A stretch of DNA of 64,000 nt from an uncultured Nitrospiraceae bacterium (lineage in GTDB: Bacteria > Nitrospirota > Thermodesulfovibrionia > Thermodesulfovibrionales > UBA6898). Location: contig CAWEQH010000008.1 of NCBI GenBank assembly GCA_963811165.1, positions 32,001 through 96,000 on the forward strand. The letters run 5' to 3'. The notes below the pieces were generated by a model that was not told the DNA's origin, made no database searches, and saw only the letters and a program-made list of their open reading frames with translations. Below, in pieces: positions 39,557 through 43,566 of the stretch (its first letter is position 1; each line of letters starts with the position of its first letter). Made by a program: the position numbers and the translations under genes.

Positions 39557-39580
39557 AAAGTTTTCTCTTCCCTTGCAATT

Positions 39581-39615
39581 AACGGCCGGCCTACGAAGAA
39601 AGTGAGCCGGCCGTT
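39581..39615 (+). terminator. Hairpin after adk
   Basis: AACGGCCGGC/GCCGGCCGTT 10-bp stem; short U-tail. Confidence 0.5.
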
Positions 39616-39618
39616 TCT

Positions 39619-39840
39619 ATGACGGGCGGCGCAACCCTTGTGCCTCAATCGAAGGAAAGTCTTTCGAGAGCGTCACAACTAATGGAGAAATATAGAGATG
39701 TTCCAATGGATTTTGCCGACGCTACACTTGTAGTCTTGGCGGGGGAAATGGAGGTCGAGGAGATATTCACATTGGATATTAGAGGGTTCGGAACGTATCG
39801 CATCACAGGGAAGAGGGCCTTTAAGATATGGCCGAAGTAG
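39619..39840 (+). pseudogene. vapC: N-terminally truncated PIN-domain (VapC) toxin fragment
   Basis: LMEKYRDVPMDFADATLV..IFTLD..F..YR is a PIN C-terminal half; in-frame stop at 39580 upstream; no antitoxin. Confidence 0.75.
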
Positions 39841-40008
39841 AAAACCTTGGAGAATCCGGTAATTCAAGGGGCAAGATTACCTAGAGCCGATAGTGGAAAT
39901 AAAGCCGGCGGAAGATCGGTGCTCCGAAGAGCCTTTGCGGCAAGATCGGCCGCGGTTAACACCACGCTATACGTAACAAAACCTGCTTTTTCTTTTGTTG
40001 TCAGTAGG

Positions 40009-40941
40009 TTAAAGCCTACTATTTATAAGCTCTTTTTGTTCCCATTCAAAGTTATCAGCTCTTATCGGCTGGGTATTCTGCAAAACAATCTTTATCGCTT
40101 TGAAGTAATCTCTCTGTACTTTGAGATTGGAGACTCTACAGTAACATTGAGTTGTTGTAATCCGGCTGTGGCCCAATAGATCCTGTATGGTAACGAGATC
40201 GGCATCGGCGTTCAGGAGCTGTGTTGCCATAGTATGTCTAAGGTGATGACAGGATACCGCAGTCCCGGTCCTCTGTGCATAGTATTCAATCCTCTTTTGA
40301 ATGCCGCGAACTGATATCGGCTTTCCCCTCAGCGGCCCCTTCTGCACTAAGAACACTCTTTTCTCCTTCGACCATTTCCGTTTCTGCATATACGCCTCTA
40401 AGGCACTCTGGGCATCTTCGCTGAGATAGACAACCCTGTCCTTGCTGCCTTTGCCATTGAAGACATAAAGCTGTCTGCTGCGATACTCTATCGCATCTAC
40501 TGTCAGTCGTGCAACCTCCTCAACTCGCAAACCGCACCTGAGCATGAGCATGAACATGGCCCGATCCCTGGCGTCATTGATCTCCCTAAAGAGAGTCACA
40601 ATCTGTTCGTCTCTTAGATGTTTGGGCAATGGCCTGGGCAGACGAAGCCTATAATTCTTTCTTACCGGATTGGTAAGAGGCATTCTCTCATCTTCGATCA
40701 GATAATCGTAGAAGGCATGGATGCAGCCGAAATGACAGTTGATAGTCTTTGGTTTCATTCTCCTTCTCAATAGATGGTCCATATACGCATCGGTTTCTTT
40801 GTGGGTTATTTGCTCCAAAGAAACCTGCGACCAGACATTGAAGTGACCGAGGATATTCATGTAGTTTTTTACAGTGTTGGCCGAACAGTTCCTTCGCTTT
40901 AGGAACCTTCGGTACTTGGCAATCAGATCAGTAAGCCCCAT
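40009..40941 (-). CDS. Tyrosine recombinase B (XerC/D-like, N-terminal SAM-like domain)
   Basis: Full catalytic set: CGLR, GKGSKDR, HHLRH, LGHS, TTQCY. Confidence 0.93.
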   Translation of the reverse strand: MGLTDLIAKYRRFLKRRNCSANTVKNYMNILGHFNVWSQVSLEQITHKETDAYMDHLLRRRMKPKTINCHFGCIHAFYDYLIEDERMPLTNPVRKNYRLRLPRPLPKHLRDEQIVTLFREINDARDRAMFMLMLRCGLRVEEVARLTVDAIEYRSRQLYVFNGKGSKDRVVYLSEDAQSALEAYMQKRKWSKEKRVFLVQKGPLRGKPISVRGIQKRIEYYAQRTGTAVSCHHLRHTMATQLLNADADLVTIQDLLGHSRITTTQCYCRVSNLKVQRDYFKAIKIVLQNTQPIRADNFEWEQKELINSRL

Positions 40942-41928
40942 TAATGCCTCCCTGCTCGATGATTTCCATGGCACGGAAGTACTCCTCTTCACGGCTCTTA
41001 TCTGTCAGGCGGGCATATCGTCGGGTCATCTCTATATCGCGGTGGCCCAACAAAAATTGCAAGACATTCCAGGCGCATGCCGGCATTGAGCAGTTCACTT
41101 GCAAAGGTATGACGAAGACTGTGTATTGTATAGCCTTTGTGTTGGAGCCCTGTTTCTCTCAAGTATCGCGTGAAGATATTACGGGCCGAGGTATAACACA
41201 AGTGACTCCTCAGACCATGGAAGAGATATTCTTTTGTCTTATCTCTCTTTTTAAGCCAGAGCCCTAAGGCCATCAGTGCATCATCACTCAGATAAACCAC
41301 TCGCCCAAGATAGTTCTTTTCGCCCTCATAGATGTGTATCTTCCTCTCACGGACATCAAGATCTATCATCTTCAAGCTGAGAAGCTCACCGATTCTCATG
41401 CCTGTCCGTAAGAGCACGAGGATTAGGGCACGGTCACGAATCTCCTTAATGACACCAAGAATCTTTCTGACATCGCCCGGCGCAATGGCCCTCGGCAGGA
41501 AATCCGGCACTTTGAGTTTTATCTTGCGTTTGAGTATGCGTCCGTCAATGATATCCTGTTCGATCAGAAAACGAAGAAAAGCAAAAAGGCAATGAAGCCG
41601 TGTTCTGACTGATGTGACCTTGAGTCCCCGATCCTGCTCGTGTTCAATAAATGCTTCCAGATCGTTACCGGCAATCTCCTCGATATGACTCTTCCCAATG
41701 GTCGCCATAGAAAATGAGAAAGGAACTCACCGAGAGGAAGCTCGCCCAAAGAGTGCTTGGCTTGTGATTCATTCTCCACTTATAAAGCATGTAGCTCTCG
41801 AAATGCTCTCTGCCGGGAAGGTCTAACTTAGAGATCCTCTGAAGAATACGATCAATGGGGGGCTGGTAATTGACTACTTCGATGTCACTGACGATTGCTT
41901 TGAGAATTGAACCTGCTTTGGTCATCAT
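40928..41928 (-). CDS. Tyrosine recombinase A, two +1 frameshifts (~41705, ~41062)
   Basis: ORF pieces join to give ...AFIEHEQDRGL...TGMRIGE...HSLRHT...LQFLLGHRDIEMTRRYARLTDKSREEEYFRAM...GAY*; SD GAGGAGG; overlaps the start of recombinase B. Confidence 0.88.
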
Positions 41929-42071
41929 TCCTCCTCTTTCTATATGAAAAAGCAGGATTTATCATGACCCTCAGTGCACTTGAGGTTCAATCCATTTTGT
42001 TACGTATAGCACCGACAAAGAAATAGTTATAGGAAATTGAAACAATTGAAGATTACCGTGAAAACAGACAC

Positions 42072-42294: not shown

Positions 42295-43343
42295 TCAATA
42301 ACACTGCCATAGTACCCTGTACTGGTTTGAGGCCGTACCTTGATCATACAGGATAGTTGGTATGCATCATCCTGACTGAAGGTTGGCCCGTATAGAGGGC
42401 ACAATGGCAATTATCTCATTGGTCTGCCCCGATGACCAATTCCAGAAGAAGACACCGCCGCCTGTTGCCCTTGTCCAATCCTGCCCCTGCCCGTAGCCGT
42501 GTGCTGCAAATTCAGCATTATAATCCGCAAGGGTAGGCCATGCAGGAGAAGCACCGTGATTCATGCTTTTTACAAGCAACTGCCCATCGCCGCCTGTCAG
42601 GCGCACATTTATCATGATTATGTTCAGCCACGTATTAAGAGAAGTGCTGCAACCACCAGCAGGAGTGGTAAGGTTGAAATACTGCATTTCGTGCGAAGCC
42701 AATGTCACAGAGTATTCCTGGTTTATCGCCATGTTTATCGGTGGGGCGGCCTGGCCGTCGGTTTCCAGGGCAATAATACCCGAATTAATACCAATAAAGA
42801 ATTGAGAGTTGAAATCGAGCCATGAAGGAATACTACTTATTGTCCCGGATACTGTTTGTCCTTGATAAATATAATCACATCCGTTCCAACCCCCCGAAAA
42901 TGTTATGAGGGCAGTATTAGTATCGGCCCCAAATGTGCTCAAGTCAAAAGTGTAGTTGCCCTGCATAAATCTATAATCCCCGGCCACACAAACAAAAGGA
43001 TTCCCTGTGCCCGGACTAAAGGAAATATTGAATGTCTGATCCGCATTAGACTTTAATGTCACATAATAAGAGGTAGAATCATCGACAACCAAAAAATTCC
43101 AAGTTTTCTCTATAACAGCAACTTCCCGGCCATAAGCAGTCGGGACAAGATCAGTTGATTGGGATCCCATTTTAAATCTGCCCAATATTTACCGGGCTTC
43201 CCAATAACAGTAACACCCGAAGCACGGATAGATGTTGAATCCTTGACCTGGATGCTCGCGCCAGTAAGATCGATATCGAACACTCCGAAGGCCATACCAG
43301 ACAACGAAAAAAGAATGATGGCAACTAAAAAGAACTTCTTCAC
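42295..43343 (-). CDS. Secreted hypothetical beta-rich protein, frameshifted (~43146; probably also near 42400; C-terminus uncertain)
   Basis: SD AAGGAGG + GTG, signal peptide KKFFLVAIILFSLSGMAFG; the frame switch at ..PNQLIL/VPTAYG.. joins ORFs 43110-43418 and 42367-43185. Confidence 0.65.
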
Positions 43344-43429
43344 TTTGCTCCTCCTTAAGCTCCGATTGTTTATCGCACCCGGTTCATGTCTATCACAATA
43401 CTCATTGTAGCAGAGCAAGACTCAAGAAA

Positions 43430-43452
43430 GATTCCCGGCAGGCGGGAATGAC
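43430..43452 (+). repeat. REP/dRS3-like palindrome
   Basis: GATTCCCGGCAGGCGGGAATGAC matches the ATTCCC-N7/8-GGGAATGAC repeat class. Confidence 0.6.
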
Positions 43453-43566
43453 AGAAAATAATGTAAGAATATTTCAATGACTTATTCCATATTCGTCAGA
43501 GCATATGCTCTCCGAAAACCGGCGGGTCCCCTTGCGAAACAATCCTTCCAGTCTTTAAAATGGTCT

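Follow-up and report, generated by a model that had tools for sequence, protein, structure and literature searches.

Does a pair of tyrosine recombinase genes framed by short inverted repeats constitute a mobile element in its own right and, if so, by what route does it move? The question is raised by positions 39960-42009 of a 64,000-nucleotide stretch (contig CAWEQH010000008.1, positions 32,001 to 96,000; hereafter the window) from the genome of an uncultured Nitrospiraceae bacterium. The unit at this position is a real mobile element, present in multiple copies and polymorphic for insertion, and we regard this as practically certain. Taken as a whole, the observations are best explained by an element the size of an insertion sequence (IS) that carries two recombinases, likely passes through a circular intermediate and uses a one-sided core match at degenerate host sites; we judge this explanation probable. 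In the following, G000 is this genome, X1, X2 and X4 are public sequencing runs, and other G and L labels denote genomes and loci of relatives.

The element is multi-copy and polymorphic for insertion

Four full copies of the element are present in G000, at unrelated loci with unrelated flanks, and are 85-96% identical. A contig of run X1 joins window position 39959 straight to 42010, skipping 2,050 bases with 4 letters ambiguous; this is a single contig with a depth of 3.9 and a shorter side of 86 bases. It follows from this joint that the empty site retains the 7-bp core CACCGAC and that the element brings the core CACCACG along. In a contig of run X2, the gene-A end of the element is joined to an exact match of G000 C1:67208 onward, a position that is empty in this assembly. 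The same site (C1:67201/67208) was picked independently by the target profile described below. In run X4, the other end of the element stands beside a flank that is absent from this genome. Further copies and empty sites were among the checks that an earlier, sequence-only reading of the locus had named, and the four genome copies together with the empty allele in X1 supply both. The family is recently active.

That reading had also proposed excision as a circle whose joined ends form an arm-spacer-arm joint. Such a joint is found in one relative's metagenome contig (L102), as an arm-core-arm sequence bearing the right-end core, but no free circle of the window copy was seen. Several points weigh against the explanation as a whole. 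The runs with the empty and the second site come from one study and possibly include the source sample, and the X1 and X2 findings rest on one low-depth contig each. No circle joint of the window copy was seen in the contigs of 8 runs, among the joints listed. The joint pattern has only 4 matches in 241 million metagenome records, with L102 the one true left-end/right-end joint, and this joint may stem from a circle, a tandem or an assembly path. Viral contigs gave no match to the circle joint, and no RNA run is listed among the runs holding the element.

Four other candidates were rejected. L100:97-129 and L103:2601-2632, considered as circle joints, are solo arm-core-arm palindromes (7- and 6-base spacers, respectively) with no recombinase gene nearby; the L103 palindrome is flanked by a recQ-like gene and the gene that follows it. 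L101:208-280 is an element inserted beside two further arm-like sequences, and G422:C8, considered as a tandem on account of two arms in the same direction, is actually two separate partial copies.

Boundaries and gene content of the element

The features of the locus are the following.

39960..42009, minus strand: whole inserted element, 2,050 bp, from the run X1 contig and the four genome copies; its edge slides by 4 bases (common CACC)
39951..39959, plus strand: host half-site flanking the target core on one side; degenerate consensus of 120 flanks, with A/T at position -2 in 119/120
39960..39966, plus strand: element-borne 7-bp core CACCACG at the gene-B end; the same in all 4 genome copies and not in the empty site
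39967..39981, plus strand: terminal arm at the gene-B end, a putative recombinase-binding site; kept in 38 distinct right ends
39978..39992, plus strand: subterminal motif CCTGCTTTTT; inverted repeat of it at 41946-41960; kept at both ends family-wide
39999..40011, plus strand: integration host factor (IHF)-like site, 33-45 bases inside the gene-B end; putative binding site, from its match to the IHF consensus
40009..40941, minus strand: gene B, tyrosine recombinase of 310 amino acids, intact; Pfam PF00589
40928..41925, minus strand: gene A, tyrosine recombinase of ~331 amino acids; PF00589; two +1 indels near 41697-41700 and 41061-41064
41961..41990, minus strand: likely promoter of gene A, with TTGA and CATNAT boxes and an imperfect palindrome over them; proposed from conservation in 34 distinct left ends only
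41995..42009, minus strand: terminal arm at the gene-A end, from the repeat search and left-end alignment
42010..42016, plus strand: target-derived 7-bp core CACCGAC; kept in the empty site and the commonest host-site core (18/38 sites)
42050..42064, plus strand: accessory target motif, at a distance of 33 bases from the core

The perfect 16-bp inverted repeat described in the sequence-only reading is present at 39966-39981 and 41995-42010. The length of 2,045 bp given there is refined to 2,050 bp of inserted DNA; the outermost base of the repeat is part of the core. Perfect 16-mer inverted repeat pairs spaced 1.8-2.3 kb apart occur only 3 times in the 3.66-Mb genome, each time in a copy of this element. 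The conserved family arm is CTATACGTAACA, with an arm length of 12-16 bp and the 7-bp core directly outside. The claim that no exact target duplication exists is literally correct, but the two 7-bp cores of the window copy, CACCACG and CACCGAC, have CACC in common. Neither the list of open reading frames (ORFs) nor a Pfam scan contains a DDE transposase, a third gene or cargo within the element, as had been stated. The only domains are those of tyrosine recombinases, with no HUH or serine transposase among the element's Pfam domains.

The two recombinases and the gene A frameshifts

Genes A and B both match PF00589 and overlap by 14 nt, in agreement with the earlier description of two overlapping Xer-like genes. 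The R, K, HxxR, H and Y catalytic residues noted in both show no variation across 19 aligned A and 21 aligned B proteins. Values of dN/dS are 0.10-0.20 for gene A and 0.10-0.19 for gene B (6 pairs of relatives per gene), and by these sequence measures both genes are under purifying selection and catalytically complete. In complete relatives (n=56), gene A is open in at least 46/56 and gene B in 56/56.

In the window copy, gene A is split across three frames by two single-base insertions, near 41697-41700 and 41061-41064, just as the two +1 indels had been read. Comparison with short-read contigs bears on their origin: the indel near 41700 is missing in 4/4 runs, one contig reaching into this flank, and that near 41064 is missing in 3/4. 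These contigs may derive from other copies of the element. A host xerC-like gene (G000 C9:89819-90756) carries a frameshift in this assembly as well, as residual indel errors would produce. The frameshifts of gene A are probably consensus or assembly errors. An assembly artefact or dead relic would accord with gene A being out of frame in each of the 4 assembled copies, one of them with many indels, a fact that also weighs against a functional element. However, the indels are not alike among the four copies, the short-read contigs mostly lack them, the host xerC-like gene is frameshifted too, and insertion polymorphism is present. An artefact or relic is extremely unlikely, although any single copy may be truly inactive.

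The element proteins score 131-196 bits against XerC/XerD cut-offs of 330-335, and the host has its own separate xerC- and xerD-like genes. Annotation labels the element's genes xerC/xerD, and such elements are consequently overlooked. Complex prediction for A and B gave a score of 0.43 (best control 0.00), with contacts agreeing at least 57% between runs and partner pLDDT of at least 75. In calibration, scores of 0.60 or lower held only 18/157 solved complexes along with both passing mismatches of 215; a pass of this kind is more often wrong than right unless interaction is likely beforehand. The predicted score may have its source in likeness to solved XerC/D or Cre complexes. From the coupling of the genes, their fused relatives and, weakly, the complex prediction, we infer that the two proteins cooperate in a hetero-oligomer.

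Core sequences and a proposed mechanism

The cores were compared in 60 de-duplicated insertions, a set from which elements with <30 bases of flank were dropped and to which 13 from later loci were added. The two cores are identical, giving a perfect 7-bp direct repeat, in 37/60 insertions and imperfect in the remaining 23. From the first to the seventh position, identity is seen in 49, 45, 44, 52, 57, 56 and 60 of all insertions and in 12, 8, 7, 15, 20, 19 and 23 of the imperfect ones. In imperfect insertions, the element usually retains its own core at one end, and the target matches it over 3-4 bases. The arrangement with the target core on the left and the element core on the right holds for most of these insertions, with exceptions. 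Of 12 close pairs (at least 97% identical and including an imperfect insertion), 11 share the right core and 1 shares the left. Among lineages, the cores vary and occur in both orientations (CAGGAAG/CTTCCTG), even among elements that are >90% identical. Near the gene-B end lies an IHF-like site: the IHF consensus is matched with at most one mismatch in the right end of 39/60 elements and at 0% of random internal positions.

These patterns suggest a mechanism that, in full, we consider fairly probable. The ends of the element would join as arm-core-arm, likely in a circular intermediate. A and B would then integrate the circle at degenerate host sites, where the 7-base core need match on one side only. 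The first strand exchange would take place at the side with 3-4 matching core bases, and the orientation would be set thereby. Cutting of the bottom strand at the matched side, with a swap of about 3 bases, would leave the target core on the left and the element core on the right, exactly as observed. Usually only the product of that strand would be fixed, by replication or biased repair, and for this reason the gene-A end would carry the core of the target and the gene-B end that of the element. The two proteins would work as a hetero-oligomer, probably with IHF, and occasional use of the other strand would explain the different or inverted cores in close relatives. There are precedents for parts of this scheme. 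For IntDOT, identity on one side sets the first cleavage and the orientation (PMC2817482), and SE elements show the target spacer on the left, the circle spacer on the right and a strand bias (PMC10214605). The constant right core argues against an SE-style carry-over of the spacer from the left flank.

A competing explanation is ordinary two-strand excision and integration with heteroduplex cores, as in CTnDOT or Tn916, in which the constant right core would reflect descent from a few perfect-core donors. Such a route fits the 37 perfect repeats, the presence in G061 of a perfect-core copy (L029) that is a possible donor, and the tolerance of IntDOT for mismatches on one side (PMC2817482). 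However, resolution of heteroduplexes predicts left and right in about equal numbers, at odds with the 11/12 and 1/12 seen. In addition, G000 is without a perfect-core copy, yet its four copies, 4-15% apart, have one right core, and the element core occurs in 0/38 sites found by the target profile. Because both patterns would be expected from a two-strand exchange with heteroduplex cores, we favour fixation of one strand, with reasonable though limited confidence; the two-strand route is unlikely. Some points weaken the case for one-strand fixation. The counts of close pairs draw largely on two genomes and lack independence, and a single perfect-core donor, of which L029 in G061 is an example, could also yield a constant right core. 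Furthermore, L053 and L187 match on the other side of the core, and the cores of L024 and L051 match at just 2-3 of 7 positions.

Target sites and a dispersed host-site family

None of 52 rebuilt empty targets lies in an open frame of at least 150 codons, compared with 64% of 500 random positions. The flanks of the insertions form a weak palindrome about the core. In 30/54 targets, an unguided motif search, with the position not fixed beforehand, located an additional motif at a distance of 32-33 bases from the core; control flanks gave no such peak. This accessory motif was considered as an IHF site and rejected: in the 30 sites it has 2-7 mismatches to the IHF consensus, and because of this poor fit it is not called one.

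A profile trained solely on the targets of other genomes found 20 sites above 20 bits in G000 and 1 in the reversed genome. After iteration, 38 G000 sites scored above 18 bits against 0 in the control; 34 are intergenic, 18 have CACCGAC, 3 are occupied copies and none has the element core CACCACG. When the core columns were blanked, 11/51 top matches still began with CACC, compared with 0/19 controls and a background of 0.33%. In the host sites, core positions 1-4 are fixed and positions 5-7 variable. Similarity between host sites often begins or ends at the core; C1:67201, for example, resembles one site from -106 to -1 and another from +2 to +101. Comparison of congeneric genomes places a break of synteny within the core at 2/4 sites examined. 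G001 has the same upstream DNA and a similar core with a different motif-bearing end, and G002 and G004 diverge after 2-7 core bases. At the other 2/4 sites, similarity stopped ~50-230 bases short of the core. The targets are a family of ~35 intergenic host sites with halves shuffled at the same core, and they look like junctions of other mobile modules. The genes beside them have varied accessory functions (nearest genes, 20 regions).

Host sites in G000 include C10:830591, C10:780158, C10:780254, C4:720228 and C1:67201, and some are just ~96-126 bases apart, like empty modules. Another multi-copy G000 element (C1:481416-482665, C10:814063, C8:91763, C4:711281 and C4:55193) starts ~50 bases away from the core of two target-type sites and adjoins an IS3-type integrase-core gene in L277.

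A strict site pattern has 12 matches in G000 (control 0) and 13 in 7 other element-bearing genomes of the order, with 7 in G428 and none in two. The corresponding figure is 45 in 143 element-free genomes, against 38 in 150 for the reversed control. In five element-rich genomes, the counts are 5, 7, 8, 2 and 0 versus 0, 1, 0, 3 and 0. As the strict pattern was derived from these same targets, its enrichment with the element is suggestive only.

Who shuffles these sites may be read in two ways. In one, the enzymes of the element would be the mobile integrase of an array-free, genome-wide shuffling system, recombining the ~35 dispersed host sites in trans through the same 7-bp core logic and inserting or swapping accessory modules (sensors, cytochromes, transporters and toxin-antitoxin pairs); the related Chloroflexota pair would work as one fused double-recombinase protein. 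We offer this as a speculative and rather unlikely extension. In the other, which is somewhat easier to credit though short of probable, the sites would have been created, and would be shuffled, by a different recombinase (host XerC/D or an integrase not linked to the element), and the element would be a passenger that does no more than recognise these sites. G000 does hold other tyrosine recombinases (XerD C10:410671, XerC-like C9:89819, and C10:706956, C1:6139 and C9:101668), and host half-sites match the element arm at just ~4-5 of 9 positions. On the other hand, the host sites have the same 7-bp core length and one-sided conservation as the element, and the site pattern is at chance in element-free genomes and higher with the element, though XerC/D is expected in all. 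The passenger view bears on how the sites arose and does not conflict with the explanation of the element as a circle-forming two-recombinase unit.

The surroundings of the window copy show further features. No tRNA is present in the 64-kb window. An ORF at 39570-39840 is by eye PIN-domain (VapC-type) toxin-like and apparently frameshifted at its start; similar DNA occurs in several relatives, and a 73-amino-acid piece of it has no Pfam match. Two abutting minus-strand ORFs at 42367-43418 (102 and 272 amino acids), with a signal-peptide-like start and no family match, are probably one frameshifted surface protein. They and the element make up a variable block flanked by adk and mutL. A short REP-like repeat at 43422-43465 occurs twice in L026 and once each in L022 and L008.

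A family of minimal two-recombinase transposons

When GTDB genomes were scanned with gene B, 263 stretches were confirmed, and the family counts below rest on the best 79 of these loci. Hosts are mostly Nitrospirota and deltaproteobacteria. Both ends were found in 56/79 loci, many of the others being cut off by contig ends. Complete units are 2,024-2,503 bp in 46/56, with two genes each, and their A and B proteins span 50-86% identity. The genome G061 holds 12 paired-end copies. Presence is patchy, with 3/400 other genomes of the element's own phylum and 17/400 of the G062 phylum carrying it. No close relative was found in PLSDB plasmids (gene A none at 1e-20, gene B at most 36%), for the element recombinases in phage records, or among 80 listed viral loci (identity at most 35%).

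Ten units are longer than 2.5 kb: 7 have an extra ORF of ~400 amino acids after gene B, and 3 contain nested IS transposases. Extra ORFs were scanned in 8/10 of these units, and none is a recombinase. The ~400-amino-acid gene lies between gene B and the right arm (L065:6990-8207, L067:7035-8222, L068, L069, L070, L087 and L097). Five were scanned; they are not recombinases, three have weak C-terminal TPR matches, 5 copies gave no PADLOC match, and the Atlas neighbours are hypothetical proteins.

Kinship was assessed with a quick tree of 94 sequences (SH-aLRT support) that held two pHG1 trios (6 sequences) as Rit references and, for the Tn554-like branch, one actinobacterial pair assigned by size and order; Tn554, SE and GInt proteins lay outside its sampling. 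The phylogenetic check against RitA/B/C and XerC/D that had been proposed places A and B apart: A forms one clade (99) and B another (98), and a further node (87) unites them with the two halves of a fused family. The next branch is the actinobacterial Tn554-like pair (95, long branches), with RitA/B/C and XerC/D outside. The fused family emerged from a profile search that returned many single-chain proteins of 600-700 amino acids with two complete recombinase units, the B-like half first (P0136, P0143, P0147, P0148, P0152, P0161-P0164, P0169, P0178, P0181 and P0182). A search with one fused protein found 735 proteins at E <=1e-80; named ones are from Chloroflexota, and they stand mostly on 2-3 kb contigs, as expected of a repeated small element. 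A second, unrelated double-recombinase set (P0211, P0226, P0243, P0245, P0257 and P0263) is mostly nearer Xer.

Another reading is a RIT or Tn554 element, truncated or degenerate, without its third gene and dependent on mobilisation in trans. It would share the overlapping recombinase genes and terminal inverted repeats of RIT (PMC3414803) and would suit the position of the Tn554-like pair as nearest named branch. The tree speaks against it, as A and B are separate clades nearer each other and the fused family than RitA/B/C. Profile scores against Rit proteins reach at most 96 bits, under those of XerC/D at 106-127. The units keep a steady 2.0-2.5 kb in 46/56 cases over 50-86% protein identity, under purifying selection, and no TnpC-sized third gene is present. 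The kept catalytic residues and the grouping away from RitA/B/C and XerC/D mean that the element is not a truncated RIT. This alternative is already largely refuted, and we consider it highly improbable. What the sequence-only reading had named as refuting it did not occur: homologous pairs have the arms at both ends in 56/79 loci, no third recombinase was found, the unit stands at several loci per genome, and there is an empty allele.

The element belongs to a family of minimal two-recombinase transposons that is apparently undescribed; no description of it was found in full-text searches covering mainly freely available papers. The proposal of a new mobile-element class survives as a new family among tyrosine-recombinase transposons, 'class' being somewhat strong because Tn554-like pairs without TnpC are known (PMC3414803). 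Also new are the host-site family with halves shuffled at the core and the single-chain double recombinases in Chloroflexota.

Comparison with known systems

In a 2023 overview, tyrosine-recombinase transposons fall into five groups, and transposition of RIT and GInt had not been reproduced in the laboratory (PMC10214605). The present family is smaller than the multi-recombinase groups of that overview, with two genes, short arms and known empty and filled sites. It makes testable the need for more than one recombinase in such elements and the handling of mismatched cores. Natural strict-core and relaxed-core lineages, together with natural single-chain fusions, are ready comparisons. If it is true that the enzymes also shuffle host sites, Nitrospirota and deltaproteobacteria of soils and sediments would have a new way of turning over accessory genes.

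Like RIT elements, the element is a multi-copy, cargo-free unit bounded by inverted repeats and filled by overlapping recombinase genes; unlike it, RIT elements have three genes, ~3.5 kb and inverted repeats of 28-34 bp (PMC3414803, PMC5737581, PMC10214605), and RitA has two core-binding domains (PMC8138268). Neither element protein groups with RitA/B/C. XerC/XerD with dif or pdif modules likewise involve two Xer-like enzymes and dispersed sites bracketing accessory genes. In contrast to these, the enzymes here are carried on the element, and its 7-bp core and arms are unlike the dif consensus.

Tn554-like elements with two recombinases are already on record (PMC3414803); TnpC is absent from some of them, but one of the proteins is very long. 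They share with the element two adjacent co-directional tyrosine recombinase genes and identical copies at several loci, and some actinobacterial members are without TnpC (PMC3414803). One partner there has 611-828 amino acids (PMC3414803), whereas the element's proteins have ~310-340 (331 and 310 in the window copy). Identity of the Tn554-like pair to them is just ~25-34%. Unlike Tn554 itself, the element has no TnpC, perfect short arms and many target sites instead of one (PMC3414803).

The closest parallels are found at the junctions. SE elements share the target spacer on the left and element spacer on the right, the strand bias, the few selected targets and two catalytic recombinases (PMC10214605). 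However, they need four genes (IntA, Tfp, IntB and Srap), have a median length of 15.7 kb and carry a spacer of 6 bp that each round copies from the left flank of the donor (PMC10214605); the present element has two genes, 2 kb and a 7-bp core that is mostly lineage-constant on the right. In CTnDOT, one-sided overlap identity also suffices and sets first cleavage and orientation, but this is a large conjugative element with a single integrase bearing an arm-binding N domain, and both strands are exchanged (PMC2817482). Helicobacter TnPZ, with XerT, has a 7-bp core at both ends and a single one at empty sites, terminal inverted repeats of 13-14 bp, many insertion sites and an Xer-like enzyme (PMC2731543). 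It differs in having one recombinase, 39-55 kb, conjugation with a type IV secretion system and one fixed core word, where the element's cores differ and invert between lineages (PMC2731543). The element is a member of none of these three groups, and in its junction behaviour it is most like SE, CTnDOT and TnPZ.

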